NCBI GenBank assembly: GCA_020833025.1
Contig: JAJHRB010000007.1
Location: 1 to 36,318, forward strand
Length of the DNA: 36,318 bases
Reading direction: 5' to 3'
Source of the DNA: Thermoproteaceae archaeon
GTDB taxonomy: Archaea > Thermoproteota > Thermoprotei > Thermoproteales > Thermoproteaceae
Numbering within the stretch: position 1 is the first letter of the stretch; each line of letters opens with the position of its first letter. Below the pieces are notes generated by a model, which saw nothing but the letters and a program-made list of their open reading frames with translations, ran no database searches and was not told the DNA's origin. Shown here in pieces: positions 8,967 to 26,159 of the stretch. The translations under genes and the position numbers were made by a program.

Positions 8967-8980
8967 CGAAAGTTTTAAAT
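8967..8980 (+). promoter_or_regulatory. BRE + TATA box driving the tRNA 5' piece at 9003
   Basis: CGAAAG-TTTTAAAT, with TATA ~29 nt upstream of tRNA G1. Confidence 0.75.
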
Positions 8981-9002
8981 AGCCGCAGCCTAATAGCCGC
9001 AA

Positions 9003-9056
9003 GCCCCGGTAGCTCAGCCCGGTCGGAGCGCCCAGGCAGCCCCGCCGGGCCGCCGC
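9003..9056 (+). tRNA. tRNA 5' fragment (positions 1 to ~29, Thr-like) with GC-rich trailer; candidate split tRNA piece
   Basis: GCCCCGG-TA-GCTC-AGCCCGGTCG-GAGC-G-CCC gives the acceptor 5' strand and a complete D arm; no T-loop or CCGGGGC downstream; trailer AGGCAGCCCCGCCGGGCCGCCGC then pyrimidine tract. Confidence 0.75.
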
Positions 9057-9538
9057 ACTCCCAGTCCTCCTCTCGAGCCGCTCCCAAGGGGCCGGTCTCC
9101 ACGGAGGGCGCAGAGAAGCCGGAGCGAGAGTGCGCGGCTGAGCGTATTCGGCCCCTCAGGGTATCGGCGCGGCGCGTCAGCGTGTCATTCAAGCGCGTTG
9201 CGGCCTCGCTGAGCTGCGGCGCCGCCCGGAAAAGCTCGGCCAATTAAGGCCGGCCGCGATGTAGCGCGCCCACCATATCTGCCACTATGCCGGCGCTTAC
9301 ACCGCCGGCCTGCGGGCAGGAAGCATGGCTGCGAGAAGGGATCCCGACATGCCGATTACCGCGTCGAGAGCGCCCACTAGCGCAGGTCGCGCCCAGAATC
9401 CTCCCCTCCTTTAGCCGCTCTCAGCTGGCGCGGTGTCTCCTGGCGGCCCCGCTGCAAACAGCCCTAACGCTAGCGTGGCTGGCGCCGGCAGCAACGCGAG
9501 TGCACGCTGTTTGCGAATATCCCGGCGTTGCGCGAAAT

Positions 9539-10435
9539 CTATGTGGCACACACCGTTTTCTTGCAGCTGCGCTTTGCTATAGATGCCGGCTTCTTGTCGT
9601 GCTGCTTATTTGCTCTGGTTTCCGCGTAGATCGATATTACGCCTCCTAAAATCACCAGAGCCCCACCGGCGGCGGTCCATTGCGATGGCGTCTGGCCCAG
9701 AAACAAGAAGGCAAACGTCGACGCATAAACTGGGTCCAGATAGCTGAGCGCGGACGCCAGCTGTACCGTGATTCTGCGCAACGCGTCGTACCACAGAAAC
9801 AGCGCCAACAAGGTGTTTAACACGGCGGCTGTAAACGCCGCGACTAAGGCGGAGGGGGTCGCCTCAAATCTGTATAGCGCCAGAAAAGGCGCCGTGAAAA
9901 ATGTTGCCACAGATGTCTGACATAGAACTAAATGGATAGGCGCCATGCGACTTGCGGAGAGCTTGCTGGTAACTATAAGCGCTGCATAAAACGCGGCGCT
10001 TAATGCGGCAAATAAGACGCCTAAGGGCGTAGTGTAGCTGGCGAACCCCATTAGCATGGTTACGCCGATAAACGAGACTAGTAAGGCCAGTAACTTTAGT
10101 GTCTGCATTTTCTCGCCGAGAAAGTGCATGTAAACGCTAGCTATTATGGGGCCTGCATAGTAGATCATAACAGCAGTGGACACCGGCATAAGAGTAGTGG
10201 CGTGGAATAGGAAGATCCAGTTAAGCGCGAGGAAAACGCCAGACAAAATCGCAGTCAGGCTGTCACACGCGAAGCCGCGCAGAGCCACAGCTAGCAAGAC
10301 GGCGGTAATAGCCACCCTGAAGAAGACAAACACAGGCGAAGGAAGTCCAGAAAGCTCGAATATAATGGGTACACTACCCCAAATAGCCGTCACCGCCAGC
10401 ATTTCTAATATGCCGACCGCGACTTGACCCCGCAT
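9539..10435 (-). CDS. EamA/DMT-family permease
   Basis: About 10 TM segments, AIWGS...FFRV and ASALSYLDPV repeats of the DMT fold; starts 2 nt after upstream stop. Confidence 0.9.
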   Translation of the reverse strand: MRGQVAVGILEMLAVTAIWGSVPIIFELSGLPSPVFVFFRVAITAVLLAVALRGFACDSLTAILSGVFLALNWIFLFHATTLMPVSTAVMIYYAGPIIASVYMHFLGEKMQTLKLLALLVSFIGVTMLMGFASYTTPLGVLFAALSAAFYAALIVTSKLSASRMAPIHLVLCQTSVATFFTAPFLALYRFEATPSALVAAFTAAVLNTLLALFLWYDALRRITVQLASALSYLDPVYASTFAFLFLGQTPSQWTAAGGALVILGGVISIYAETRANKQHDKKPASIAKRSCKKTVCAT

Positions 10436-10436
10436 G

Positions 10437-11978
10437 TCACAACTTGCGGAAGACCAGCACGTAGGTGCCCGACCCTCTTCCTGTGGGATATACTCTATAC
10501 TGTGCCACCGGCTTCAAGCCGAGCGCAGACGCCGCGCCTACGAACTTCTCCACCGACGTCTTCCTCTCCTCTATGTATGCCACCCCCAGCAGAAGCGAGG
10601 TGAGCTCAAGCCTATAGAAGTGAAGAAAGGCCTTTTCTACGTCGTCTCCGCTCTCCCTAAGCTCTTTGGATATGCCGTGGTACGTCTTCGCCAAGATGTC
10701 CAGGGCCAATTTTATCTTTTCTGCCCTAGCGGCGTGGTATGCAGATAGGAGCTCCACGCGATATCTCTCTAGCGGGATGTCCAGGAGGTAGCGCAGATGA
10801 TGCATTATTATATTTCTCCGCCTTTCTCGCTCATTGTTATAGTCCGCTATAAACTCATCAGCCACAACGAGCAGGCCGCCGCTTCTCAGTCTCGACGAAA
10901 TCCATTCAAGGAAGTTCTCGATATGATGCGAAGCTCCGAACGAAACCACAGCAGAAGTGCCGGCGGGCACGTCGTCCAGCACTTGAACCGGGCTCAACTT
11001 CCTGAAAAACGGCGAAGATTCCACACAGGATATTTTCAAATCGGGCAAAAGCTCCGCCAGAATCCTTTCGTGATAGGCAGGGCCGCATGTCACGCTGATT
11101 ACCTCCGTAATTCTGCGCTTATAGAGCTCGTACGCGACATATACGGCCTGCTCGGCATAGCCAGGATGAAGAGGCTCGTAGATAAGATATTCGTACACAT
11201 CAAAATTCTGCTCGAACGGCGTAGTTCTCAAAACCTGTGGAAGGTTAGCACCCCTCGCGTGTACGACGGCTTTAGGTAGCGTCAACCTGCCAGCTAACGT
11301 GTTGTACTCGGCGGAAAGAATGTCAAAGAGGAGTAGATCCAGATACCTCTCCGGGGGCTGTTTCTTGTTTACCACCGAGATCGCATAGGCGAGGATCTCA
11401 TTGTCAACGTCTGGCTCAAGCAAGTCCCTAACCCCCTCTGTAACTACAGGCGTGGCGTCGAGGTACCATCTCTTGGCAGGTCTTCTCTGCGTGTGATAAA
11501 ACATAGCCACGACGGCAACAGCGCCGCCGCCCACCGCCATATAGAGATGGGGCTCCCCGCCGTAGAATTTGGCCGTCTCCCCCTCCCAGACGTACTTCGG
11601 CGCGTCGAGAGGCCCCACTATCATAGCCCCCTCAATTACGTGAACTACCTCAAGCGGCGAGTTTTCATGCGGCTCCGCGTAGCGTGTAGCCCCGGCTCCC
11701 AGCCTCATGAGATACACCTCCTTGCTGTTCCTTCGTTCTATTAAACGAACTTCGACGCCGTTTTCGGCGACGGATAGACTATGTTCCACAAGCTCGCCAA
11801 ACGTAACGCCTAAGGCGTTGGCGATTTTCCACAGGGTAGAGATGGTGGGGCTTACCCTCCCTTGCTCAATGGCCCACAACGCCGATTTGGAGATTCCTAC
11901 CAATTTTGCTAGTTGCGACAAGGTAAGACCCCGCTTCTCTCTGAGCTCCATAATCCTTTTCCCAACGGCGACTTCCAC
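10437..11978 (-). CDS. XRE helix-turn-helix + cupin + class I methyltransferase-like fusion protein
   Basis: N-terminal LREKRGLTLSQLAKLVGISKSALWAIEQGRVSPTISTL; cupin HENSPLEVVHVIEG...PHLY; C-terminal VTCGPA..., CVESS, SFGASHH, LRSGGLLVVADEF. Confidence 0.75.
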   Translation of the reverse strand: MEVAVGKRIMELREKRGLTLSQLAKLVGISKSALWAIEQGRVSPTISTLWKIANALGVTFGELVEHSLSVAENGVEVRLIERRNSKEVYLMRLGAGATRYAEPHENSPLEVVHVIEGAMIVGPLDAPKYVWEGETAKFYGGEPHLYMAVGGGAVAVVAMFYHTQRRPAKRWYLDATPVVTEGVRDLLEPDVDNEILAYAISVVNKKQPPERYLDLLLFDILSAEYNTLAGRLTLPKAVVHARGANLPQVLRTTPFEQNFDVYEYLIYEPLHPGYAEQAVYVAYELYKRRITEVISVTCGPAYHERILAELLPDLKISCVESSPFFRKLSPVQVLDDVPAGTSAVVSFGASHHIENFLEWISSRLRSGGLLVVADEFIADYNNERERRRNIIMHHLRYLLDIPLERYRVELLSAYHAARAEKIKLALDILAKTYHGISKELRESGDDVEKAFLHFYRLELTSLLLGVAYIEERKTSVEKFVGAASALGLKPVAQYRVYPTGRGSGTYVLVFRKL

Positions 11979-12615
11979 GCCAGTTCTATATTTAGAACTT
12001 AAAATTGTTCAGCCCGTCTATCGCCGACCACCGCTCGCCCACCAACGCTCTCATCGCCGAGTGCTCTGACCGCAGAGGCTATGCATCATGATACTCATGT
12101 TGCTATTCTCCAGCAGTGGCGGCAATTTCGGCCTGAACCATGCGCCGCTGTAACAAAAGAAAGTAAGGGTAGCCCAGATCCCGGGGTCTACGCTGAGCGC
12201 TTGCGCAGTCACGTAGTCAGCCTAGGCGCAGTTTTCGCCGGTCACAATAGTGCCGCCTGCCATGCAGTAAGCGTTTCTCGCCACTTAGTGCTTATACAAG
12301 GTCCTGAAGCTTTCATACATGTTCTGTGTCTCTTTCGGCCCCAGGATCTGTAGCGTCCCTCCCGAAGACTCTGCGCCTTTCCTCGGTCGTTGACACTTCT
12401 TCACAACGCAATTGAGGCCGCCGGCGGCCCCGAGGCGGCCAAAATTAGGCCGTACGCTGCAGCTGACCTCCTAAGGCCGGCCAGGAGGGACGATGAAGTA
12501 AGAGAGGCGATAGCGATGTACCTCGCCGAGATGGCGAGAAGCAGAGCGCCGAGACGGAGAGTTCGCTGAATGTTTAAGTTAGAATGCCGGCCGGGCATGA
12601 CGGGAATAAAGGAGT

Positions 12616-12732
12616 TGGTGGACCGGCCGGGATTCGAACCCGGGATCGCCCGCGCTCTCGGGCGTATTGTGGCACGCCGCGCCAAGCGGGCATCCTTCCG
12701 CTAGACTCGGCGGTCTCGATCTCTACCGGCCC
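12616..12732 (-). tRNA. tRNA-Ala(GGC) with two introns (17 nt at 10/11, 12706-12722; 25 nt at 37/38, 12655-12679); CCA encoded
   Basis: Removing both introns gives 75-nt GGGCCGGTAGTCTAGCGGAAGGATGCCCGCTTGGCGCGCGGGCGATCCCGGGTTCGAATCCCGGCCGGTCCACCA, a full cloverleaf with G3-U70; TTTAAA at 12764-12769. Confidence 0.93.
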
Positions 12733-13039
12733 TCGCGCCGGTCCTGTGCCCTGATTATCCGCGTTTAAAAAAGTTTTTCGCTTTATCGGCATCCGAGCCA
12801 GGAGATCCGCGCAGGCTTCTCTGCACTCTAGCCCAGGTCGGCCGCTAATAGCAGGAAAACCAGCCTAGTTGGCTAGCAGTATGCGTAAACGGTGCGAGGA
12901 GCTGCGGCGCTGCGTGTATCGAAACCGCCCTCAGGGGCTGCTGGACAGCCCACGGTCAAGGAGCTGGGACCGTGAGCTTGCCTGGGTCTCAGCGGCAGGT
13001 AGGTTAAAGTCAAGGCACTGGGCAGGCCCGCCGATATGC

Positions 13040-13489
13040 ATGCAGTGCCGCGTCAGGATATACGCAGATGCTGAGAGCGTGGCGAGGAAGGCGGTGGGAG
13101 CCGGGCCTCTCAGGGGCATGCATGCCGATAGCCGCCTGATTAATAGCATGCTGGTGATCCGCGTCCACGGCCTGGGCGTGCCGCTTCAGGTCTCTCTGCG
13201 TGAGGCAGGCAGGAGCTGGCGCGCTGACTGTGAGGTGCCGCCTAATGCCGTCGCCGAGCGTCGCGCCGGCCGTACTGCCGGGTGTGCGGGACTGGCGCTC
13301 TCCTGCCGGCGGGGCCAGCGCCACAGAGCCCCTGCCCGAGCCCGCACGAGCCCGCGCCCGTCTCGCCGCAGCGCGGCTCACGGGCGGGCGCCTCGCTGCA
13401 CCATGCAAGAACTTACTCGCGTCGCCACCACAGCCCTCCCCTCTCGCCCTCAGGTTATCGATGGCCCGCGGCGTGCCGGCTCAACATAG
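13040..13489 (+). CDS. Possible hypothetical or decaying ORF
   Basis: ATG 13040 downstream of GGTTAAAG; first ~70 aa look protein-like, remainder is R/A/P-rich and shadow-like. Confidence 0.2.
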   Translation: MQCRVRIYADAESVARKAVGAGPLRGMHADSRLINSMLVIRVHGLGVPLQVSLREAGRSWRADCEVPPNAVAERRAGRTAGCAGLALSCRRGQRHRAPARARTSPRPSRRSAAHGRAPRCTMQELTRVATTALPSRPQVIDGPRRAGST

Positions 13490-13559
13490 TCCATCCGCGC
13501 GGATTTGCACGCGGGGCGCCGGGTTTTGCGTGCCGGCGGAAGTTGAGGGCGTGCGGCTC

Positions 13560-13979
13560 TCAGCCCCAGAGCATGTACTCCTCCTTCAGTAACTCTTGCA
13601 GCACTGCTCTCTCGAAGCACAGGTCCCTCACGGATATCACGCCGACGAGCTCGCCATCTCTGTTGACAATTACCAGGTGCCTGATTTTGTGCTCGCGCAT
13701 TCTCTCCGCGGCGACCCAGATAGGGTCTGTGTCGAGGGCAGTGACCGGGGGCTTTCTCGCTACCTCGACGGCAGGCCTCTCGGGGTCTACATGCTCTGCT
13801 ACCGCCCTCACGACGTCTCTCTCCGAAATCACGGCAACGGGCCTCCTCGGGTCGCTCCTAGAGGTCAGAACCACTATCCCTACTCTGCTCCTGGCTAGTT
13901 CTCTTGCCACGTCCCTTATCGTTGCCGTCTCGGAGAGCGAGACTGGCGGCCTTCTTATCAAGTCCGCGCACCTGAGCAT
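13560..13979 (-). CDS. CBS-domain pair protein
   Basis: Two CBS repeats: VAVISERDVVRA and IRHLVIVNRDGELVGVISVRDL. Confidence 0.92.
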   Translation of the reverse strand: MLRCADLIRRPPVSLSETATIRDVARELARSRVGIVVLTSRSDPRRPVAVISERDVVRAVAEHVDPERPAVEVARKPPVTALDTDPIWVAAERMREHKIRHLVIVNRDGELVGVISVRDLCFERAVLQELLKEEYMLWG

Positions 13980-14029
13980 GGACAGCTCAGTAACCCGCCC
14001 AATTAAACAATATTATCGCAATTGTCGAA

Positions 14030-14758
14030 CTACACCGGCACGCGTAGCACTACGTCAACAGGAAAGCTAAGCCGGAGCGCCAGCCCCTCCCGCGCCATCA
14101 GCACCGAGGCCCCGACGACTCGCGCGCCTGCCGCTTGCGCCAAGTTCGCTAGGGCCTCGAGAGTCCTGCCCGTCCTGGCTATGTCGTCGACTACAAACGC
14201 GCGATCCCCACGCCCAATTTGCGTCGCGGGAATGTAGAGCGTGACGGGCCTCCCCTCCCTCAGCAGCGTGTACTCATAATTTGCAACTCCCGGCTCTCTG
14301 TACTGCTTGGCGACAACGAGTCTGGCGGAGAGCCGCGAGGCCGCGACGACGGCAAGCGGCACTCCGTCGACTGCCGCCGTGAGGACGACGTCTACTTCAA
14401 GCTCGGGGAACCTCCTGCTGAGGTATATGCCGTACAGCTCCCAGAGCTCGGGCAGGTTTGCAAATGACATGTCTACATAGGTCTCGTACGTCCTCACTAG
14501 CGTCTTGATAATGCTTGACAGCGGGTACGCTCTTTCGAGCGCTGCCAGCATCCTCCCGGCTGTGTCTGGAGACGGCAGCATGTCGCCCGTGACGTACCTG
14601 GAGAGAACGCTCTCTGGCAGGCTGAGCAGCACGGAAAGGTCTCTGTACGTCACATTCAGCAGCCGCTTCACCGACTTCAGGTAGTTAACTGCGTCGAGTC
14701 TTAGCCTTAGGCTCTCCATTCTTCTCGCGAAATTTCTCGTGACCTCTCTCGCAGACAC
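14030..14758 (-). CDS. HTH + purine phosphoribosyltransferase (PurR/Apt-like)
   Basis: N-terminal TYRDLSVLLSLPESVLSRYVTGDMLPS HTH; PRPP-binding VVDDIARTGRT. Confidence 0.85.
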   Translation of the reverse strand: MSAREVTRNFARRMESLRLRLDAVNYLKSVKRLLNVTYRDLSVLLSLPESVLSRYVTGDMLPSPDTAGRMLAALERAYPLSSIIKTLVRTYETYVDMSFANLPELWELYGIYLSRRFPELEVDVVLTAAVDGVPLAVVAASRLSARLVVAKQYREPGVANYEYTLLREGRPVTLYIPATQIGRGDRAFVVDDIARTGRTLEALANLAQAAGARVVGASVLMAREGLALRLSFPVDVVLRVPV

Positions 14759-14849
14759 TATCTAGTGTGCGCTATATTATTTAATATTAATATCGGGCAG
14801 GCCAGCCCTCTTGCGAGTTGTTTTAATAAGCGCGCGCGGAAGCCTCGCA

Positions 14850-15446
14850 ATGTTAGAGGGCACAGGCGAGCTGGCAATTGAAATGTTCCAGGACTCCATA
14901 ACCGTGTACTACAGGGGTAAGAAAATTCCTGTGCTCGCTCTCTACGCAACGCCAACGCTCCACTACATACAGTTCGTCGCGCCGTACGTTGCCAGGAGGC
15001 TGATAGAGAGCAAGATAGCTGAGTTCAGAATCTGGGACCGCAGAGCCGCGAGAGTGATAGAGCTCGCGTGCAGGGGGCTCTGCCGTTACAGCAGTGCCGG
15101 CGCCGACATAAGCGGCGTGCTCGAGGAGGCGTATTACAACAGCCTTGCCGACGCGATCCTGGCGCGCGCGGCAGCTGTGGACGCGCTGGTCGTGCCGTGC
15201 GCCGACGCGCCGTTCGCCAGGGCGCTCATCAAGCGCGCGAGCGAGAGCGCGCCCGATCTCAAGATAATAGCGTCGCAGTACGGCGGTCAGTGCGTCGGAG
15301 CAGACGTCGTTCACACGCCGCAGCTCGCCGACGTGCCGCTCCCCCTGGGCCCCATCTCCAGAGCCGCGCTGCACACCGCGATGTGGGCCGTCGGGTCGGG
15401 AGAGGCAGAGTGTCCCTTGACGCCGCTGCTCGACTGTTCGTGCTGA
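14850..15446 (+). CDS. Hypothetical protein
   Basis: ATG 14850 lies ~25 nt after TTTTAATA; typical codon and amino-acid usage. Confidence 0.65.
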
Positions 15447-15454
15447 CGGCAATG

Positions 15455-15515
15455 CGGCTCAGCCCTCCAGGTGTGCGTCATCGTGTCGGGCGTCCCGACG
15501 GCCCTCATCACGGCA
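15455..15515 (-). ncRNA. C/D-box sRNA, targets unassigned
   Basis: Minus strand: box C GTGATGA 15511-15505, D' CCGA 15489-15486, C' CGATGA 15483-15478, D CTGA 15462-15459; two 15-nt guides. Confidence 0.8.
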
Positions 15516-15600
15516 AGCCACGGCGCCCCGCGCCCTCTGCGTGCCCCCGCGGCCCACTTCTTGCAGCAAGGTAAAAAAAAAGCTGGGAGCGCTGCGGCGC

Positions 15601-16425
15601 GTGAGGAGTGCGGGCACCCAGGGTCCGTGCAGGGTAGTTGCCGTGGTCTCGGGCGGTCCCGACAGCACGTGCTACGCCGTGTCGTGGCTCAAGCGCGGCT
15701 GCGACGTGCACGCACTGACGTTCGCGTACGGCCAGAAGGCAAGGGCGGAGGTCGAGAGGGCAGTGGCGCTAATGAGGAGGATAGGCAAGATCGCTGAGAG
15801 CAAGGGCTGGGGGCGCGTGGTCGAGCACAGAGTGGTGGACGTCTCGCGGCTCGGCGAGATGTGGCGGGGCACACAGCTCACGGACGCCTCCGTGCCCGTG
15901 AGGGCGGAGTACGCGCCGACAGTTGTGGTGCCGATTAGGAATGTGGTTATGGCTGCAATTGCCACGGCATATGCCTACACGCTAAAGGCTCTGACCGGCG
16001 CTAGGGTGTACGTCGCGCTGGGCTCTCAGTACGACGACGTAAGGCCGCGGGACGACACGTGGGAGCCGCGATACCCGGACTGCTCTCCCGAGTGCATCGA
16101 GGCGCTGCAGGCAGCCTTTAGGATCTGCCACTTCCGCGCCGAGCGCGACGTGGAGATATGGACTCCGTCCAGAGAGGGCGTCAGGAAGTCGCAACTGCTG
16201 AGGGCGTGTTACGAGGAGGTGGGAGAGCTAGTGTACGAGACGTGGTCGTGCTATAAGCACGGAGAGATCCACTGCGGCGGGTGCGAGAGCTGCAAGAATA
16301 GACACGCGGCCTTTCTTGAGGCGGGAATTCCCGACTGCACGGCATACGCCACGCCGCCAGGTCCTGGTTTTGAGCGGCGCGGCAGCGCGCACGTGCACGC
16401 GAGCTGCCGCAGGCCCTCATCCTGA
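15601..16425 (+). CDS. queC: 7-cyano-7-deazaguanine (preQ0) synthase
   Basis: VSGGPDS, YGQK, VVPIRN, RYPDC, TWSCY...HCGGCESC; start set at GTG 15601 after the A-rich TATA at ~15572. Confidence 0.9.
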
Positions 16426-16461
16426 GATCGGCCCCGCGGCCGCGCGCCTGAAGCGGGGCGG

Positions 16462-17709
16462 CTACTCTGGCGGAGCTGACAGCAGGCTGAGCAGTCTCGT
16501 TAGCGTGTCTCTCGCGCTGCTTTCCAGCGTCTCCAGAACCATGTCTGTTATCTCGCGGAGGGCTGCGCGGGACAGCGACGCCACAGCCAGCGCGTCAATT
16601 GGCGTGTGCCCGCCGCGCGCGAGCGCGTCTATGTATCTCGCCGGCGCGCCGCCCTCCCTCAGTCTCTCAACATACTGGCTCTCCCCGCCCTCCCTCCTTG
16701 CAGTCGCGGCGCTGTGAGCGGCATTTAGAGTCTTGAGGTGCGGCGTTATGTCCGCCGCACGCCTGCCGGCGCTCACGTAAACGCGCGGGAGGGCCACGCC
16801 GCGGGAGCCGAGAAAGGACTGGACAGACGCGTAGTCGTAATAGAGGTTGTCTCCCATCTCTACCAGGAGGAATCCGAGGATCTCGCCGCGGGCCGCGTCT
16901 GCACGCAAATGAATTGTAATGGCGCTCTTGCTCACGCTCACGCACTCGGCGACTTTAAATGCTATGTTCGCAGCGTAGCCTGCATCGAATGAAAGCAAGC
17001 CCTCGACATCAACCCCGCTCACTCTTTCTCGAGTGATGTCAAGAGCATCCGCGAGTCTTAGCACGGCGCCCCAGAAGCTCACATCAATAACGCGGCCGGA
17101 GAGTTGTGCCGGGGGCAGGTCGAGTCTTGCAAATCCCCAGTGGAGCAGCGCCACGTCACTCACGACGCTCGCGAATGCCCTGGCGTCCTCCACGCAGCCG
17201 CTCACAAAGCTCGAGAGCTCCCTTCTCGTAATCTCGCGGCTCACCCACGGGTGTATCACTCTGAGGAATCTCGCAAAGTGCCGCATGTCTGAGGCGCCTA
17301 TGCTAGCGCTCGGCACCATGAGCCTGCCCCACTCTATGATGCTCTTGCCCTCGCCGTACTTCTCAAAGTAGCTGGCGAATTGCCTTAGCCTCGTCGAGAG
17401 GCCGGCGGCGCCCCCTGGGTCTAAGTACTCGCGCAGCGTCGCCGCGTTCAGTGACAGCGCATTGAGCTCTTGCGGCGTGACGAACATTCCCACGTCGTGG
17501 GCGTAAGCAGAGCACGCCAGGAGTGACCCGTGAAGGCCGCCGCACTGCTCGCCGCCCTCTCCCAGCGCGGCGCAGAGCTCCCTTCCCGCCCTCTCCACGC
17601 GGTCTGCGTGAGAGACGCCATGCAGGGTGAGGTGGGGGAGGCCGGAGTGCTTCTCGCGCCTCTCGGCGAATTCCCTGCACGCCTCAGTGGCGCCGCTCCA
17701 CACAGTCAC
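16462..17709 (-). CDS. HD-superfamily metal-dependent phosphohydrolase (HD-CE-like)
   Basis: LTLHGVSHADRV, AYAHDVGM, VALLHW, LRLADALDITRER. Confidence 0.75.
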   Translation of the reverse strand: MTVWSGATEACREFAERREKHSGLPHLTLHGVSHADRVERAGRELCAALGEGGEQCGGLHGSLLACSAYAHDVGMFVTPQELNALSLNAATLREYLDPGGAAGLSTRLRQFASYFEKYGEGKSIIEWGRLMVPSASIGASDMRHFARFLRVIHPWVSREITRRELSSFVSGCVEDARAFASVVSDVALLHWGFARLDLPPAQLSGRVIDVSFWGAVLRLADALDITRERVSGVDVEGLLSFDAGYAANIAFKVAECVSVSKSAITIHLRADAARGEILGFLLVEMGDNLYYDYASVQSFLGSRGVALPRVYVSAGRRAADITPHLKTLNAAHSAATARREGGESQYVERLREGGAPARYIDALARGGHTPIDALAVASLSRAALREITDMVLETLESSARDTLTRLLSLLSAPPE

Positions 17710-17760
17710 GCGAGGCTTGCAGCGCGCCCGGGAAAAAGTATTATTAACTGCCGCGGCGGC

Positions 17761-18972
17761 CTACGCGCAGAGCCTGAGCGATAGGGAGTCTCTTGTGAGC
17801 TCTCTGACCGGCCACTTCTGGTAGTCGAACGTGACTGCCTTAATTTCGCGCGCCTTTCTGTAAGCGTCGGCGCGGCGCGCGCCCTCCCTGATCAGCCTAT
17901 TCATGTGAAACTCGGTCAACGCGTACGGCAGCGCTCTCTGCAAGTTCTCTGCTATGCGGCCCTCGTTTACCTCCAGGCTTCTCAGAACTGCAAGCATGCT
18001 TTCCAGCATCTCGTCAACCGCCAGAATCGACTCGGGTATCCAGATGCGCTCGTTTGCCGAGTTTGTGAGGTCTCTCTCGTGCCACAGCGCAACATTCTCC
18101 AGCGCGACGTTGACCAGAGCGCGGACGTAACGCGCGAGGCTGACTATTCTCTCTGACGCTGTCGGGTTTGATTTGTGCGGCATGGCCGACGAGCCGCCGC
18201 CCCTCTCGACGAGCTCTCCAATCTCCGGCCTTGAGAGCTCCCTGACCTCGGTTGCCAGGCGCTCTAAGACGGCTGCCACGAGGGCCAGCGCGAAGGCAAG
18301 CACTGCAAAGGTCTCGCGCGGTGCCACTTGCGTCGTTATCGTGTGGTACGGCAGCCCCAGCCTCTCGGCGACGCGCCGCCTTATCTCGGGCCCCAGCTCT
18401 CCCCACGCGGCCATTGTGCCCACGGCGCCGCCAATTTTTGCCCTCACCATGTCCTCGGCAAGCGTCAGCTGCTTGCACGCTATGTAGAGCTCGTAGTAGT
18501 AGTTTGCAAACTTGAAGCCAAGCGTGATAGGCTCGGCCCACTGCCCGTGAGTGCGGCCGATCATCTCAAGGTTCTCGTACTTTCTCGCGAGGCGCGAGAG
18601 CTCCTCGCCTACAGCCACTATTTTGCTCTTCACGGCCGACAGCGCCCTCCTGACCAGCATGGCCCACGCCGTGTCCACAATGTCGTACGACGTCGCGCCG
18701 TAGTGCACAAAGCGACAGCCGCTCCTCTCTTCGAGCAGCAGTACTAGGCTTAGGACGTCGTGTCTTGTCTCCCTCTCGAGCTTGTAGACGTCGTCGGCGC
18801 TCACTTTAACTCCAGCGAGGGCGTCACAGCAGCCGCGCTCGGCAACTCCAAGCTCCTCCAGCACGCACACAAGCGCCCTCTCGACCTCAACGTAGGCATC
18901 AATTATTGACTGGGGGGTGAAGAGGCTGCGGATCTCGTCCGAGCCGTAGCGCCAGTCAAACGGGGAGATCAT
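17761..18972 (-). CDS. purB: Adenylosuccinate lyase
   Basis: GRTHGQ, GGAVGT, SSAMPHKSNP, HERDLTNS; closely resembles the Pyrobaculum enzyme. Confidence 0.97.
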   Translation of the reverse strand: MISPFDWRYGSDEIRSLFTPQSIIDAYVEVERALVCVLEELGVAERGCCDALAGVKVSADDVYKLERETRHDVLSLVLLLEERSGCRFVHYGATSYDIVDTAWAMLVRRALSAVKSKIVAVGEELSRLARKYENLEMIGRTHGQWAEPITLGFKFANYYYELYIACKQLTLAEDMVRAKIGGAVGTMAAWGELGPEIRRRVAERLGLPYHTITTQVAPRETFAVLAFALALVAAVLERLATEVRELSRPEIGELVERGGGSSAMPHKSNPTASERIVSLARYVRALVNVALENVALWHERDLTNSANERIWIPESILAVDEMLESMLAVLRSLEVNEGRIAENLQRALPYALTEFHMNRLIREGARRADAYRKAREIKAVTFDYQKWPVRELTRDSLSLRLCA

Positions 18973-19106
18973 GTTCCCTGCGTGCGGCCAGCACTAATTA
19001 TAGTTGGGGGCCCCGAGACTCGGGGGAATCCCGCTCTGGACGCCTCAAACCGCGCCTGCGCGCTAAGCTGGCTTGAGGGCGGCCTGGGCTAAAATTAGCG
19101 CTTAGT

Positions 19107-20111
19107 TCAGAGCCTTCCCTTCTCGCGCCTCAAGTCTATCACGTGCCAGGGCTCGGGCCCTGTGCCTATCAGCGTGACTGGCACCCCGAGCTGGCTCTCT
19201 ATCTCGTCAATCCACCGTCGCGCCTCCGGGGGCAGATCCCCCCAGCGCGCCTTTCCGGCAGCCTCCCTAAATATGGCGTCTACTTTGGTGATCGCTATCT
19301 GCGTGGGCGTGTTGAGAAGGACCGCCCTCTTGGCCAGGTCAATATTGAAGGGGGCGGCCCTCCTCTGCCTGCCGGTGACGGCCCCGCGCTCCGCCCAGCC
19401 CCTCCTCTCGACCTCCTCGGGCGGCAGCTCGCCAGGGAGGGGGCCCCCGCCCACTCTGGTAACGTAGGCCTTGAAGACCAAGACGATCTCGTCAGCTGCC
19501 TTGGGCCCGACGCCGGCCTCGCTTAACACGCCGCTGGCAGTCACGTCCCTGCTCGTGACGTACGGGTAGGTTCCGTGGTAGAGCGATAGAAACGTTCCCT
19601 GCGTGCCCTCAATTATAACGCCGCGGTCCTTAAGCTCGTGGACCAGAGAGGGGACGTCTGCCAGGTAGGGTTTTAGCACGTCGAAGTCCCTGGCCAGTCT
19701 CAGCCTCCTCAGAACGCGATCCACCACGGCCGCTCCCACGCCCTGTCCCGTTGACCCGATCACCCTCATCAGATACTCGTCCTCCAGCTCCGCGCTCACG
19801 TGCCGGTCCTCTATTACGCCGGTATTGTAATCAACGTGAGACTTGCCCCTGCCGTACTTGTTTACCTCGTCGAGGAAGATATCAACTCTTATCAACGCGC
19901 CCGGCGCCACCGCTAGCCTGGCCTCGTGGTGCGTAAAGCACGCAGGGAGGGCCCTCAGTACGTGCGCCACGCCGTTTATCATGACTGTGTGGCCAGCATT
20001 CGGCGCGCCGGTCCTCACGCAGAGGGCCGGTCTGTCGGCGGCTGCCAAGTATGACACTACCTTTCCTTTGCCTGTGTCGCCGAAAAAGCCGTCGACTACC
20101 ACGTAGAGCAC
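19107..20111 (-). CDS. purA: Adenylosuccinate synthetase (short archaeal type)
   Basis: GFFGDTGKGK, NAGHT, IGSTGQGVG, EGTQG, YPYVTS, RGAVTGRQR; start at GTG 20111. Confidence 0.96.
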   Translation of the reverse strand: MLYVVVDGFFGDTGKGKVVSYLAAADRPALCVRTGAPNAGHTVMINGVAHVLRALPACFTHHEARLAVAPGALIRVDIFLDEVNKYGRGKSHVDYNTGVIEDRHVSAELEDEYLMRVIGSTGQGVGAAVVDRVLRRLRLARDFDVLKPYLADVPSLVHELKDRGVIIEGTQGTFLSLYHGTYPYVTSRDVTASGVLSEAGVGPKAADEIVLVFKAYVTRVGGGPLPGELPPEEVERRGWAERGAVTGRQRRAAPFNIDLAKRAVLLNTPTQIAITKVDAIFREAAGKARWGDLPPEARRWIDEIESQLGVPVTLIGTGPEPWHVIDLRREKGRL

Positions 20112-20250
20112 GCTAGAGTCTACGCGGCAGGTAAAAAACGTCGCGCGCCTGGGAGCGCTGGCCGTGAGGCGGCGTCTGTCCCAGGGCTCTTGAGCGCTGG
20201 CGGGGCTCAAGAGTCCCGAAGTTTATAAACGGCGCGGGCGCAGCTCGGGC

Positions 20251-20778
20251 GTGAGCCCCCTCAGGGAGGCCTACCTCTACATAGTTGAGAGGGCTGTCGC
20301 GTGGGAGTTTGACAGCGCGGAGTACGGGAAGCTCGCGAGAAAAATGGTTGAACTCCTTCTTGAGCAGAGAGAGAGCATGACAGACGATAAAATAGCAATA
20401 ATGCTCAATGTCTCCACAGCAGAAGTCAGAAGAATACTTCAATACTTGATGAAACATAACTTAATAGGCACCAAGAAGAGAATGACGGAAGATTACAGAA
20501 CCGAGTACACGTGGTACGCGAACGACGAGGTGATACGGCAAGCGGTCAGAGGCAGGGCAAGGGCAGTGAGGGAGAAGCTGTCGCTCCTAATAAAGGCACT
20601 CGCCGAGGGGAGCTACTATGTGTGCCCCAACTGTTTCATGCGCTACGCGCTCGACGACGTGATGAGTGGGGGAGACTCATGTCCTGTGTGCGGGGCTAAG
20701 CTCGAGTACGTCGAGGGACCAGACGAGATAGGCAAGCTGACTAGAGTGTACGAGGAGCTCGAGAAAGTGCAGGGCTGA
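20251..20778 (+). CDS. tfe: Transcription factor E (TFIIE-alpha homologue)
   Basis: Winged helix MTDDKIA...EVRRIL, zinc ribbon CPNC...CPVCG; TTTATAAA upstream. Confidence 0.9.
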   Translation: MSPLREAYLYIVERAVAWEFDSAEYGKLARKMVELLLEQRESMTDDKIAIMLNVSTAEVRRILQYLMKHNLIGTKKRMTEDYRTEYTWYANDEVIRQAVRGRARAVREKLSLLIKALAEGSYYVCPNCFMRYALDDVMSGGDSCPVCGAKLEYVEGPDEIGKLTRVYEELEKVQG

Positions 20779-20893
20779 GCCCAGGCGCCCATTCCGCGCC
20801 CGGCCCCGGGCCGCGAGACCAGCGCCGTGTTATGCCCGCTTCAGCGCGCTCGCGGCGAGGTTAAAAAGAGGGCGTGCAGGTCTCGGGATTCTT

Positions 20894-22528
20894 GTGAGCT
20901 TTGAGATTGCCGCCAAGGACTTGGCGGCCAGAGTGGGGCGGCTCAGAGTGAAGGGCGGTGTCGTAGAGACTCCCGCGCTCTTCCCGGTAGTTGACCCGAG
21001 AAAGCAGGAGGTGCCTGTCGAGACGCTGAGGAAGTACTTTGGCCAGGTGATAACAAATGCCTACTTCATATACAAGCTTACTGGCGGCAAGACGGTAGAC
21101 GTGAAGAAGTTTATCAAGTGGGACGGCGTTGTAATGACGGACTCCGGGGCCTATCAGATGATACACCGCGGCACAGTTGAAATCGATCCAGATGAGATCC
21201 TGACATACCAGTCGAGAATAGGGAGCGATATAGGAGTCATTCTCGACATTCCGTTTGACTATGAAGAGCCTTACGAGAGCGCGCTGCTCAAGGTAGAGGA
21301 GACGATCAGGAGGGCAAAGCGGGCTGCCACGATGCTGGACAGGTTGGACATGCTCGTCGTCGCGCCGCTGCAAGGCGCTCTCTACACCGACTTGCTCATC
21401 AGGTCAGTCCGCGAGCTATCGAGACTAGGCTTCCACGTATTCGCAATAGGCAGCCCGACGACACTACTCGAAGAATATAGGTTCGACCAAGTACTCGAGA
21501 TTGTGCTGAACGTGAAGCTGAACATGGCACGAGAGGCGCCGCTCCACCTCTTCGGGGCCGGGCACCCGCTGATAATTCCATTCGCCGTGGCTCTCGGCGT
21601 TGACGCGTTTGACAGCGCGTCCTACATACTCTATGCCAGAGACGGCAGGGTCTTGCTGAGAGACAGGACGCTGCGGCTTGACGACGTGAGGACGGACTAC
21701 TTGCCGTGCAGCACTAAACTGTGCGAGATGCCCGTGAGGGAGCTGCTGGAGATGCCCCAGCACGAGCGCACGCTGCTGATAGCAGAGCACAACCTGGCTG
21801 TGATACGGGAGGAGCTGCTTGAAGTCAAGCAGCGCATATATGAGGGCACGCTGTGGGAGTACCTCGAAGTTAAGGCGCGCGCCCACCCCTCGCTCTACAG
21901 GTTCCTCCTGCTCTTGAGACGCTACCGGCACCTGCTTGAGGAGTACGACCCGGAGACGCACCCAAGACCCCACGGGCTGGTGTTTTACGGCGACACGTCG
22001 CCCGCAAGGCCGGAGCCGCTGAGACACCGCACGAGGATGTCGCGCGTCGAAATAAGCGGGAGGGCGGTAATTGTCCTGCGCGTCGAAGAGAAACCGTATA
22101 ACAAGAGCTGGGAGTATCAGTTTGTAAAGAGCATTGCAGGGAGCAGAATTCCAGTGCTCTTCTTCGATCCCACTTTTGGCATAATTCCGGAGGGCATTGC
22201 AGATGTCTACCCGCTGTCTCAAAACTCGTCCGAGGGCGAGAGCGAGGAGGCCAGGGCATTTGCGTACGAGTGGCTGGGCCGCTACGATGTGATACTGGCG
22301 TACGGAGTTGACCTGCCGCTGGCAGGCAAGCGCGTCATAAGACTCAGCTCGCTGGAGGAGATAGCAAACATGCTCTCCCTCAGCCCCGGCAGCCATCCAG
22401 AGGGCGGGGGCCCCGGGACGCCCTATATCCCGGACCGCGCAGTCCCGCCCTCAGGGCCCCCGCGCGCCCCCGCCAGCGGCGGGACTAAAGTGGAGTCAGC
22501 CGTTGAGGGCGGCGCACGCCTTATATGA
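20894..22528 (+). CDS. tgtA: Archaeosine tRNA-guanine(15) transglycosylase
   Basis: MTDSGAYQ, GVILDIP, PLQG, HLFGAG, GVDAFDSA, LPCS; last ~50 aa are an atypical G/P-rich extension. Confidence 0.93.
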   Translation: MSFEIAAKDLAARVGRLRVKGGVVETPALFPVVDPRKQEVPVETLRKYFGQVITNAYFIYKLTGGKTVDVKKFIKWDGVVMTDSGAYQMIHRGTVEIDPDEILTYQSRIGSDIGVILDIPFDYEEPYESALLKVEETIRRAKRAATMLDRLDMLVVAPLQGALYTDLLIRSVRELSRLGFHVFAIGSPTTLLEEYRFDQVLEIVLNVKLNMAREAPLHLFGAGHPLIIPFAVALGVDAFDSASYILYARDGRVLLRDRTLRLDDVRTDYLPCSTKLCEMPVRELLEMPQHERTLLIAEHNLAVIREELLEVKQRIYEGTLWEYLEVKARAHPSLYRFLLLLRRYRHLLEEYDPETHPRPHGLVFYGDTSPARPEPLRHRTRMSRVEISGRAVIVLRVEEKPYNKSWEYQFVKSIAGSRIPVLFFDPTFGIIPEGIADVYPLSQNSSEGESEEARAFAYEWLGRYDVILAYGVDLPLAGKRVIRLSSLEEIANMLSLSPGSHPEGGGPGTPYIPDRAVPPSGPPRAPASGGTKVESAVEGGARLI

Positions 22529-22644
22529 TCGCTGGCTGCAACAACCCCCGTCCAAAGCAGCCGCGCCTCGTGTGCCTCGGAGAGAAATCGGAGAGAAAAA
22601 AAGAGGCAACAGAAGGCATGGGGAGGGGCTAGGCGCCCCAAACA

Positions 22645-22660
22645 ACTAAAAATTTAAAAA
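22645..22660 (+). promoter_or_regulatory. BRE + TATA box of the tRNA-Leu 3' piece
   Basis: ACTAAAAA-TTTAAAAA; spacing as at the 9003 promoter predicts a start near 22681. Confidence 0.7.
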
Positions 22661-22680
22661 TGCGCGGGAAGAGAGGTCCC

Positions 22681-22788
22681 ACCAGCCGCCGCCCGCCCGA
22701 CTCAAGGGGCAGGGCTCTCGGCTGCAGGCCGGCCCACAAGACCCTGTGGCGTAGGCCTGCGTGGGTTCAAATCCCACCCCCCGCACCA
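22681..22788 (+). tRNA. tRNA-Leu(CAA) 3' piece (positions 22-76) with 5' leader and 20-nt intron at 34/35 (22718-22737); candidate split tRNA
   Basis: AGGGG-CAGGG-CTC[intron]AAGA-CCCTG-TGGCGTAGGCCTGC-GTGGG-TTCAAAT-CCCAC-CCCCCGC-A-CCA; the required GCGGGGG acceptor strand and D-arm 5' side are absent in cis. Confidence 0.88.
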
Positions 22789-22804
22789 CCCTCCTGCCGG
22801 CTCC

Positions 22805-25633: not shown

Positions 25634-25814
25634 TATGGTCAATGAGCTCGTGAGGCGCGGGGTGTATCCCAGCAGGAGCGAGGCCGTGAGGGCTGCAATC
25701 CGCGAGCTGCTCAGCAAGTACAGGCCGGAGACTGCCGGCGGGCGGCCGGGCGCCCCCTCGGATGGGTCGCCCCCTTCGCCCCCTCCCCGCCCTCTGCCTA
25801 GAGCTGATGAGTAA
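25572..25814 (+). CDS. Ribbon-helix-helix (CopG/NikR-like) protein
   Basis: LVSFHAP...VNELVRRGVYPSRSEAVRAAIRELL; own TATA TTTAAAT at ~25546. Confidence 0.85.
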   Translation: MSRKRERMVLVSFHAPQTYIDMVNELVRRGVYPSRSEAVRAAIRELLSKYRPETAGGRPGAPSDGSPPSPPPRPLPRADE

Positions 25815-26159
25815 CTAGACAGCAGACTGCTGATGAGCTGACGACGAGCTGACCCCTCCCCTCATCTGGGAGAGCTTCTTACTGATCTCATCCAGTAGCT
25901 GCTCTCTCGTCTTGCCCTCAACGGGTATGCCGAGGGCCCTCGCCATTTCGAGAACCTTGTTGTCCGGCTCCTCCCGTCTCTCGGCGGCCCTCTTCTCCTC
26001 CCTCTCCCCCGCGCCGGAGACTGCCTTTCTGAACTCCCTGATCGCCTCGCCCACGCCTCTTGCGAGAGACGGCAGCTTAGTCGGGCCCCATATCAGCAGG
26101 ATTACTATAGCTATGAGCACGATTATCCACTCTTGCCCGCCGAGCCACAGATACATCAT
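25815..26159 (-). CDS. tatA: Twin-arginine translocase TatA/E
   Basis: GGQEWIIVLIAIVILLIWGPTKLPSLARGVGEAIREFRKA. Confidence 0.93.
   Translation of the reverse strand: MMYLWLGGQEWIIVLIAIVILLIWGPTKLPSLARGVGEAIREFRKAVSGAGEREEKRAAERREEPDNKVLEMARALGIPVEGKTREQLLDEISKKLSQMRGGVSSSSAHQQSAV

Follow-up and report, generated by a model that had tools for sequence, protein, structure and literature searches.

The window, a 36,318-nucleotide stretch of DNA, in all likelihood contains two pieces of split tRNA genes and one tRNA gene with several introns, the products of the pieces being joined by trans-splicing; we put the probability of this reading at about 85%. Judging from the assembled genome, the organism seems to encode about one third of its tRNAs (15 of 46) as pieces that are joined at the RNA level. 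The evidence comprises the pieces themselves, their promoter-like boxes, the complementarity of their flanks, the cloverleaves obtained after joining, homologous cis introns in relatives and the genes of the splicing enzymes. The transcription, annealing, cleavage and ligation of the pieces are predicted from these features. A chance origin is excluded by the identity of the pieces to the tRNAs of relatives and by the perfect cloverleaves formed after joining.

The tRNA loci of the window

The window carries a 5′ piece of tRNA-Thr, a tRNA-Ala(GGC) gene with two introns and a 3′ piece of tRNA-Leu(CAA). A sequence-only reading had described three interrupted tRNA loci with junctions at 10/11, 37/38, 21/22, 34/35 and 29/30, and all of these were found where it had placed them. 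The source organism is an uncultured, Pyrobaculum-like archaeon. ARAGORN in default mode and Rfam at the gathering score found no tRNA in the window and are blind to all three loci, which are therefore easy to miss; ARAGORN in intron mode mis-called the Ala gene as Ser. Counts of Rfam tRNA matches per genome did not separate split-rich genomes from intron-rich relatives. For such genomes, standard tRNA finders give a badly incomplete tRNA set.

The tRNA-Thr 5′ piece lies on the forward strand. Its 31-base exon (9003–9033; tRNA positions 1–29, broken at 29/30), delimited by identity to relatives, comprises the acceptor strand GCCCCGG, the D arm and the first three bases of the anticodon stem. 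In many relatives, the 5′ part of the cis tRNA-Thr(UGU/CGU) genes is identical to it in 30 of 30 bases. A TATA-like box read from the sequence, TTTTAAATA (8973–8981), starts 30 nt ahead of the first exon base, a spacing similar to that of the other 5′ pieces of the genome (27–35 nt). Downstream of 9033, the T arm is absent and a C-rich trailer follows (AGGCAGCCCCGCCGGGCCGCCGC..., 9034–9060), which pairs with the leaders of Thr 3′ halves; the predicted cut site lies between 9033 and 9034.

The 3′ halves of tRNA-Thr were found elsewhere in the assembly, with ends at C88:12962 (UGU), C91:17014 (CGU) and C74:17829, and carry further cis introns. With the Thr(UGU) leader, the trailer of the window piece forms 3 bp, a bulged A and then a 10-bp Watson–Crick run, which was reached by 18 of 500 shuffles. 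The Thr(CGU) leader pairs with it over about 14 bp, with interruptions, and the longest Watson–Crick run of this pair is no better than in shuffles. Read by hand, the junction would consist of a clean 4-bp central helix, GCGC (tRNA positions 24–27, 9028–9031 of the forward strand in the 5′ exon), two 3-nt bulges (CC|A on the 5′ side, with leaders ending in GCGC-AA|G or GCGC-AG|G) and an inner helix, the outer helix being absent. Joined in silico to the C88 or C91 half, the window piece folds in ARAGORN as a perfect tRNA-Thr(UGU) or tRNA-Thr(CGU). Three ORFs, including those for the ribosomal proteins L19e and L18, lie upstream of the piece, and the same flank is found at the intact Thr gene of relatives. 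The downstream flanks of the relatives' Thr genes are not conserved among themselves and do not map beside the Thr 3′ halves of this genome; hence, only the upstream breakpoint is anchored.

The tRNA-Ala(GGC) gene (12616–12732, reverse strand) was delimited with the help of two further Ala genes, Ala(UGC) and Ala(CGC), which this genome also contains. Its three exons (12732–12723, 12705–12680 and 12654–12616) are separated by a 17-nt intron at 10/11 (12722–12706) and a 25-nt intron at 37/38 (12679–12655), and the spliced product folds as tRNA-Ala(GGC) with the G3:U70 pair. An A/T-rich box upstream of the gene, AAAAACTTTTTTAAAC (12763–12778, reverse strand), may serve as its promoter. Comparison with the Ala(UGC) gene, which is intron-free, and the Ala(CGC) gene places the first insertion at 9/10 or 10/11; it was read as 10/11 because a central helix of 4 bp (CGGU/GCCG, flanked by the bulges AG|A and AG|U) forms in this register only. 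The inner helix of this intron is weak and the outer helix is absent. The central helix of the 37/38 intron, UUGG/CGAG, contains one mismatch. A search for paralogues of the 10/11 intron gave nothing informative.

The tRNA-Leu(CAA) 3′ piece (22705–22788, forward strand) is broken at 21/22 and interrupted by a cis intron at 34/35. Its TATA-like box, AAAAATTTAAAAAT (22648–22661, read from sequence), stands about 57 nt ahead of the exon, inside the range of 46–60 nt observed for all 15 3′ pieces of the genome. The first exon segment (22705–22717) covers tRNA positions 22–34, A22705 being position 22. The second (22738–22788, positions 35–76), delimited by identity to relatives, includes the long variable arm, the T arm, the acceptor strand CCCCCGC, A73 and an encoded CCA ending at 22788. 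The piece is 100% identical to the Leu(CAA) tRNA of relatives over 53 bases. The 20-nt intron (22718–22737) was read from the sequence with a central helix GGGC/GCCC, an inner hairpin CGGC-UGCAG-GCCG and bulges UC|U and AC|A; 34/35 is the only register that gives a 4-bp helix. A near-identical intron of 19 nt occupies the same place in the cis Leu(UAA) gene (C100:10706–10812). Both this intron and the Ala 10/11 intron lack the outer helix, as had been noted from the window alone for two non-canonical cis introns, and the cis introns of the window display the bulge-helix-bulge (BHB) motif, with a 4-bp central helix and predicted cleavage sites two bases beyond it on each strand.

Two Leu 5′ pieces with trailers complementary to the leader of the window piece are located on contig C89, at 44350 (forward strand) and 55050 (reverse strand). 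The leader (22680–22704, with an approximate start) pairs with these trailers through CCGCCGCCCGCCC. Hand alignment gives 10 bp with the first 5′ piece and 13 bp, including one G-U pair, with the second; the 10-nt Watson–Crick run was reached by 8 of 500 shuffles. At the junction, GACU of the leader (22699–22702) would pair with GGUC of the D loop, followed by the bulge CA and a predicted cut after 22704, so that the 5′ piece reads GGUC-AA|A and the window leader GACU-CA|A. The hand-read central helix would thus be of 4 bp with one G-U pair, and the 5′ bulge of 4 nt rather than 3. The joined product folds in ARAGORN as a perfect tRNA-Leu(CAA), and the joined sequences of Thr(UGU), Thr(CGU) and Leu(CAA) all match the mature sequences of relatives. 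Minimum-energy cofolds formed the acceptor stem and the leader–trailer helices and did not reproduce the splice motif; the junctions were therefore placed without them.

Genome-wide inventory of tRNA genes and pieces

First-guess leader and trailer pairing segments had no partner in the genome, and the partner pieces were located through their acceptor and D-arm sequence. According to our reading of the 3′-end census, 31 anticodons are served by contiguous (cis) genes and 15 by split genes, each once, which is exactly the standard archaeal set of 46. No contiguous gene for Thr(UGU/CGU) or Leu(CAA) was found by this census in the assembly, a metagenome-assembled genome of 126 contigs and 94% completeness, the missing part of which could hide cis copies. 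Intact genes thus exist for 31 rather than all 46 anticodons, and complementary partner fragments lie on other contigs, in support of the earlier suggestion that this lineage may trans-splice several tRNAs. When the two junction sequences were sought in contigs from public metagenomes, in two scans, no independent assembly came up.

The genome contains at least 26 pieces. An A/T run precedes the exon of each of the 15 3′ pieces, and 10 of the 11 5′ pieces have one 27–35 nt upstream. In sequence terms, 25 of the 26 pieces, among them both pieces of the window, therefore have a promoter-like box at fixed spacing; the background for a run of at least seven A/T within 60 nt is 7%. The best-pairing trailer is acceptor-compatible for 12 of 15 leaders, compared with 3.8 expected, and a diagonal is visible in the matrix of longest Watson–Crick runs between leaders and trailers. 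Since trailers are rich in C and leaders in G, the duplex energies of leaders and trailers are only modestly above background, with z between −0.7 and −2.5 relative to dinucleotide shuffles. A code of orthogonal GC-rich leaders, proposed earlier, holds in so far as complementary partners exist. Strict orthogonality does not hold, however: several 3′ pieces depend on one and the same 5′ piece, and a Gln trailer also shows a 12-nt run with the Leu(CAA) leader.

Pieces could also belong to cis genes whose introns are very long, from hundreds of bases to kilobases, and that give a single precursor transcript with no trans-splicing. Such an arrangement is suggested by the 5′ and 3′ pieces of Thr(GGU) on C74 and Lys(CUU) on C31, which lie in tandem on the same strand about 200 nt apart, and by Met(CAU) on C89, which has a 71-nt cis intron at 29/30. 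Even in the tandem pairs, however, a second TATA-like box stands between the pieces. Moreover, the 27 kb that follow the Thr 5′ piece on the same strand contain no Thr 3′ half, the 22 kb ahead of the Leu 3′ piece lack any Leu 5′ piece, and the numbers do not match: a single Thr 5′ piece has to supply two 3′ halves, and four Leu 3′ pieces depend on two 5′ pieces. We consider long introns very improbable.

The pieces are just as unlikely to be dead remnants, whether decayed pseudogenes or partial tRNA copies that integrating elements left behind as attachment-site repeats. Integration into tRNA genes is known, according to references 22 and 24 as cited in PMC3218864, and partial 3′ copies of Ser(GCU) and Ser(CGA) are present in this genome beside or downstream of intact Ser genes (C12:11322–11399, C17:69–143 and the end of C78). 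These Ser fragments fit integrase attachment-site repeats; the window pieces do not. The latter have no intact counterpart of the same anticodon, and without split pieces the cell would lack any Thr tRNA and four of the five Leu tRNAs. One of them is a 5′ piece, which attachment-site duplication usually does not leave, and both retain the splice-site helix and their promoter-like boxes and are identical in sequence to tRNAs that function in relatives.

It is equally improbable that the genes are contiguous in the real chromosome and were split by metagenome assembly or binning, through chimeric joins at tRNA repeats or contigs of mixed strains. The assembly is fragmented, duplicate contig ends (C74/C75, C17/C69/C78 and C35/C54) suggest strain mixtures, and isoacceptors have identical stretches of 30–50 bases in common. 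Against this, the window pieces lie 9 kb and 13.5 kb from the ends of a 36-kb contig, and the breaks fall exactly at known intron sites, whereas the shared repeats end elsewhere. Misassembly cannot give each 3′ piece, as is seen throughout, a TATA-like box of its own and a leader complementary to a trailer, and a genome of a sister genus has the same architecture for all five Leu genes.

The preferred reading of split genes joined in trans leaves some junctions less regular than those of the window. A clean central-helix strand is absent in the three other Leu 3′ pieces, and no consistent BHB register was found for Leu(UAG/CAG/GAG), Lys(CUU) or the cis Met intron. A tentative and rather doubtful extension is that trans-splicing supplies 15 of the 46 anticodons, a few 5′ pieces free of the anticodon being combined with several 3′ pieces that bear it (two with four for Leu, one with two for Thr), and that at least three Leu 3′ junctions, in which no central helix is recognisable, are processed under a looser or different rule than the relaxed BHB.

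Proposed joining of the pieces and origin of the splits

Both subunits of the splicing endonuclease EndA are encoded in the genome. The alpha subunit (C61) matches chain B of PDB 2ZYZ with E = 2e-94 and the beta subunit (C29) matches chain A with E = 2e-44; a gene for the ligase RtcB is present on C60. Each piece would be transcribed from its own promoter. The Thr 5′ piece would then anneal through its acceptor strand and trailer to either the Thr(UGU) or the Thr(CGU) half, and the Leu(CAA) 3′ piece, consisting of the leader and positions 22–76, to either of the two Leu 5′ pieces of C89. At the junction, the last exon bases and the end of the leader are predicted to form a 4-bp helix between bulges, adjoining the leader–trailer helix, that is, a relaxed BHB. 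The two-subunit (alpha-beta)2 endonuclease would cut both strands, after which RtcB would ligate the exons. The same endonuclease and ligase would remove the cis introns (Ala 10/11 and 37/38, Leu 34/35 and those of the Thr 3′ halves).

Both break sites are occupied by cis introns in relatives. In three genomes of the same genus, Leu genes contain a cis 21/22 intron, both ends of which match the trailer and the leader found here. The window Leu leader is accordingly homologous to the 3′ end of that intron, as the sequence-only reading had suspected when it proposed an intron-to-split transition. A cis 29/30 intron with matching ends is present in the Thr genes of nearly all relatives. Genome rearrangements that broke older cis introns at 21/22 and 29/30 probably gave rise to the splits. 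About 15 splits together with matching cis introns in same-genus relatives provide a dense, datable intron-to-split series within one genus, which favours a late origin of split tRNAs. Some members of the group can be cultured and an endonuclease structure has been solved, so that bench experiments could test the rules that govern partner choice and cleavage.

Comparison with known split tRNAs

Split tRNAs are rare and are central to the debate on whether tRNA began as two halves or was split late. A 2011 survey gave a maximum of six split tRNAs per genome and none in Pyrobaculum (PMC3218864), and a 2014 review listed trans-spliced tRNA genes from seven species, 29 in number and covering 12 anticodons (PMC4033280). 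The 15 split tRNAs seem to be over twice the highest number reported for any organism by 2011–2014. Genes of this kind are already known; what appears to be new is the group of organisms, the break within the D loop of a long-arm tRNA and the scale. The ligation sites in the table of PMC3218864 are 30/31, 32/33 and 37/38 and do not include the 21/22 break.

In Nanoarchaeum equitans (Randau et al. 2005, as related in PMC3218864 and PMC4033280), halves lie far apart and have GC-rich complementary flanks, as here, and are processed by a heteromeric endonuclease at a relaxed BHB and ligated, steps that are predicted here from genes and sequence. One half is common to two partners (Glu) in that species; the shared piece here is the 5′ one, which has no anticodon. 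The six split tRNAs of N. equitans, joined at 30/31, 32/33 or 37/38, belong to the reduced genome of a symbiont, according to PMC3218864. Unlike it, the present host is a free-living-type relative of Pyrobaculum with additional cis introns inside the pieces.

Caldivirga maquilingensis, from the same order Thermoproteales and likewise free-living, has split and tri-split tRNA genes (Fujishima et al. 2009, as described in PMC4033280). According to the same review, one piece is common to synonymous tRNAs of different anticodons and the split sites are intron sites of related species, both of which apply here. It has six split tRNAs from ten transcripts; the genome studied here has 15 anticodons and at least 26 pieces, and other tRNA species are affected.

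Pyrobaculum and other Thermoproteales have non-canonical tRNA introns that are short, have a relaxed BHB, occur in multi-intron genes and can be similar in sequence between different tRNAs (Sugahara et al. 2008; Fujishima et al. 2010; both as presented in PMC3218864 and PMC4033280). To this kind belong the introns at Ala 10/11 and Leu 34/35 and the ancestral ones at Thr 29/30 and Leu 21/22. Unlike the known introns, the Ala 10/11 intron was found by its exact pattern in none of the 28 other genomes of the family, and the relatives' Leu(CAA) loci examined are free of introns and so lack that of Leu 34/35.

The tRNA-Asp(GUC) genes of Aeropyrum pernix and Thermosphaera aggregans and the tRNA-Lys(CUU) gene of Staphylothermus are split at an intron site of relatives, as are the genes described here (Chan, Cozen and Lowe 2011, PMC3218864). 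These splits, some with halves close together, were read as recent rearrangements through an intron, and they are single cases per genome, compared with about 15 in this Pyrobaculum-group genome.

Interrupted tRNA loci of the window and their predicted splice junctions

Default tRNA finders report no tRNA in the window, and a permissive Rfam scan returns only a tRNA-like acceptor and T arm at 12616–12732 on the minus strand. An A/T box read from the sequence (TTTTAAATA, 8973–8981, +) precedes a tRNA-Thr 5′ piece (9003–9033, +; GCCCCGGTAGCTCAGCCCGGTCGGAGCGCCC), which runs from the acceptor strand through a complete D arm to the third base of the anticodon stem; downstream of 9033 lies a C-rich stretch, and the T arm is absent. 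The tRNA-Ala(GGC) gene (12732–12616, −), with G3:U70, is interrupted by 17 nt within the D stem and by a 25-nt intron that follows position 37. The third locus consists of an A/T box (22648–22661, +), a GC-rich leader and the 3′ three-quarters of tRNA-Leu(CAA) (A22705 to 22788, +). The latter includes, in order, the D-stem 3′ strand, an anticodon arm broken by 20 nt, a long variable arm, the T arm, the acceptor CCCCCGC, A73 and an encoded CCA.

Splice junctions were placed by the standard bulge-helix-bulge (BHB) geometry, worked out from the canonical 37/38 case and from the established pairing of position 32 with the third-last intron base. In this motif, four helix bases and two bulge bases close the 5′ exon, and the four complements of those helix bases, again with two bulge bases, close the intron or leader. 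In the Thr piece, the helix strand GCGC (tRNA positions 24–27, window 9028–9031) and the bulge CC|A predict a cut after 9033, at 29/30. The leader of the Leu piece ends in GACU-CA|A and pairs with the D-loop GGUC-AA|, placing the junction at 21/22; this Leu(CAA) motif requires a 4-nt bulge and a G-U pair, and the GGCU/GACU element is lacking from the other three Leu 3′ pieces of the genome (UAG, CAG and GAG). The first Ala intron forms a helix (C5–U8 CGGU with GCCG) at 10/11 only, with none at 9/10; its inner helix is weak. For the Leu(CAA) cis intron, the helix GGGC with GCCC forms at 34/35 only and adjoins a hairpin, CGGC-UGCAG-GCCG. The complete motif is present at Ala(GGC) 37/38, its central helix containing a single mismatch; on contig 33, Ala(CGC) has a near-identical intron with perfect pairing. 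These helix registers support all five junction positions of the sequence-only reading, and its remark that the non-canonical cis introns lack an outer helix is borne out for both Ala 10/11 and Leu 34/35.

Both subunits of the heterotetrameric splicing endonuclease are encoded in the genome and match chains B and A of PDB 2ZYZ from P. aerophilum. RtcB is encoded as well; its match (contig C60, 4614–7331; loci L085 and L086) is broken by ~1.4 kb lying inside a single 961-residue open frame, a pattern that an intein would give.

Partner pieces and genome-wide census

The assembly is a fragmented MAG of 1.56 Mb in 126 contigs, 94% complete, with some contig ends duplicated; the window makes up all of its contig 34. 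Searching for T loops and for the 3′-end pattern T-stem–acceptor–N–CCA yielded about 50 tRNA 3′ ends genome-wide, three of which carry the acceptor CCGGGGC and U73. These Thr 3′ halves end at C88:12962 (UGU), C91:17014 (CGU) and C74:17829 (GGU). Their leaders end in GCGC-AA, GCGC-AG or GCGU-AG, where GCGC or GCGU is the partner strand of the central helix, and every half opens with GC (positions 30–31) right after the leader. Fit of the anticodon stem assigns the UGU and CGU halves (3′ strand GCGGG) to the window's Thr piece (CCC) and the GGU half (GCAGG) to a second Thr 5′ piece, which ends in CCU, at C74:17519.

Two promoter-preceded Leu 5′ pieces, at C89:44350 (+) and C89:55050 (−), read GCGGGGGTGCCCGAGCCAGGTCAA and continue as AGGGGCGGG(C/T)GG...; this continuation forms 10 or 13 bp with CCGCCGCCCGCCC, the leader of the window's Leu piece. 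The Leu 3′ pieces UAG, CAG and GAG are on contigs 89 and 102, and the only contiguous Leu gene of the assembly is Leu(UAA) on C100. When the pieces are joined in silico and the cis introns removed, ARAGORN folds flawless tRNA-Thr(UGU), Thr(CGU), Leu(CAA) and Ala(GGC). Scans of public metagenome contigs for two junction sequences found no independent assembly with the same junctions.

A matching 5′ acceptor was sought up to 420 nt upstream of each tRNA 3′ end, and 13 ends had none: Thr UGU and CGU; Leu CAA, UAG, CAG and GAG; Arg UCU; a CAU tRNA; Trp; Lys UUU; Asn; Gln CUG and UUG. In two further cases, Thr(GGU) (C74:17519–17829) and Lys(CUU) (C31:66–372), a 5′ piece is found about 300 nt upstream; the two pieces stand in tandem, separated by ~200 nt, and a second TATA-like box intervenes. 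With anticodons read by hand, 31 contiguous and 15 split genes make up 46 anticodons, each present once, which is the standard archaeal set. Intact cis genes in this 94%-complete assembly thus do not cover all 46 anticodons, and partner fragments exist, in keeping with the fragmented, trans-spliced tRNA system proposed from the window alone. An A/T run starts 46–60 nt before the first exon base in all 15 of the 3′ pieces and 27–35 nt before base 1 in 10 of the 11 5′ pieces; among random 60-nt windows, only 7% contain a run of at least 7 A/T.

Three incomplete 3′ copies of tRNA-Ser(GCU) and tRNA-Ser(CGA) (C12:11322–11399, C17:69–143 and C78:4323–4350) repeat parts of intact Ser genes, beside or ~10 kb downstream of them, and resemble the attachment-site repeats that integrated elements leave rather than split genes.

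Relatives and origin of the splits

The window's histidyl-tRNA synthetase shares 64–70% identity with Pyrobaculum species, and the genus of this genome holds 17 other species. Leu(CAA) is contiguous and without an intron in the examined same-genus relatives. Leu genes of three same-genus genomes carry a cis intron at 21/22, GGTCAA|A-GGGGCGGG-loop-CCCGCCC-GGCU-AG|A-GGGGC; the trailer of this genome's Leu 5′ pieces is the same as the intron's 5′ end and the leaders are the same as its 3′ end, which upholds the earlier idea of an intron-to-split transition at this site. Splitting at 21/22 is not peculiar to this genome, since all five Leu genes of the sister-genus genome G018 (loci L087–L091) are 3′ pieces. 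These repeat one nearly identical promoter and leader, GGCGCCGCCCGCCCGGCAAGA|GGGGC, and most have an extra intron after position 27.

A cis intron at 29/30 of Thr(UGU)/Thr(CGU), GAGCGCCC|A-GGGGC-nnn-GCCCC-GYGn-nn|GCCTYGTAA, was present in nearly all of ~30 examined loci, which come from 26 of the 29 family genomes searched. Upstream of the window's Thr piece lie three ORFs, among them ribosomal proteins L19e and L18, and the identical trio is found before the relatives' intact Thr gene; the downstream flank shows no conservation. The window's Thr 5′ piece thus occupies the ancestral locus, with the break in the old intron. The Ala 10/11 intron was absent from 28 other family genomes in an exact-pattern search.

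In the same-genus genome G004 (locus L064), a Thr 5′ part with exactly the window's sequence runs into unrelated sequence where the 29/30 intron and the 3′ part would usually follow; this locus may represent a split gene, or a large insertion, in another Pyrobaculum. In the window, G+C dips at 10000–12000 (0.53 vs. ~0.61). A 513-residue protein with an N-terminal HTH_3 domain (10437–11978, −) lies within the dip and adjoins an EamA-family transporter (9539–10435, −) just downstream of the broken Thr gene; the dip may be foreign DNA at the Thr breakpoint. The 5′ and 3′ pieces of Lys(UUU) (C81:446–655) are divergent, with ~180 nt and a palindromic promoter region between them, an arrangement that resembles the outcome of an inversion through the intron. 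A contiguous CAU-anticodon tRNA (C89:48692–48842) contains a 71-nt cis intron at 29/30, also the split site of Thr and of another CAU tRNA in the same genome, and looks like an intermediate state.

Split tRNAs were described with joining sites at 30/31, 32/33 and 37/38 and a maximum of six per genome (Chan, Cozen and Lowe, PMC3218864). The trans-spliced genes numbered 29, for 12 anticodons in seven species, with split sites resembling relatives' introns (Fujishima and Kanai, PMC4033280). In view of this work, the mechanism and the evolutionary reading are already known. A full-text literature search from 2013 onward found no report of split tRNA genes in Pyrobaculum. What appears to be new is the host group, the number of splits, a D-loop break in a tRNA with a long variable arm and the shared, anticodon-free 5′ pieces.

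Partner choice

When duplexes were computed for every pairing of the 11 trailers with the 15 leaders, an acceptor-compatible trailer came out best for 12 of the 15 leaders (3.8 expected). The acceptor GGGCCCG is common to five 5′ halves and five 3′ halves, and in this group the longest Watson-Crick runs (9–14 nt) assign the halves one to one. Strict orthogonality does not hold for the proposed leader code: one Thr 5′ piece would be shared by two 3′ halves and two Leu 5′ pieces by four 3′ pieces, and the window's Leu leader has a 12-nt run against a Gln trailer. Pairing of the window's Thr trailer with the CGU leader was no better than in shuffles. Duplex energies show only a modest excess over dinucleotide shuffles (z = −0.7 to −2.5), because trailers are C-rich and leaders G-rich. 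Register and homology are a stronger argument: the leader–trailer pairing adjoins the splice-site helix, and both ends match the ends of relatives' introns.

Sequences resembling C/D-box small RNAs, with C, D′, C′ and D boxes, occur at 25800–25854 (+) and 15457–15515 (−); their Rfam matches, to sR5/sR3 and sR28, score below the gathering threshold. A gene for a TGT-family tRNA-guanine transglycosylase (544 residues; 20894–22528, +) stops ~120 nt short of the Leu 3′ piece's promoter; the archaeal TGT family makes archaeosine in the D loop.
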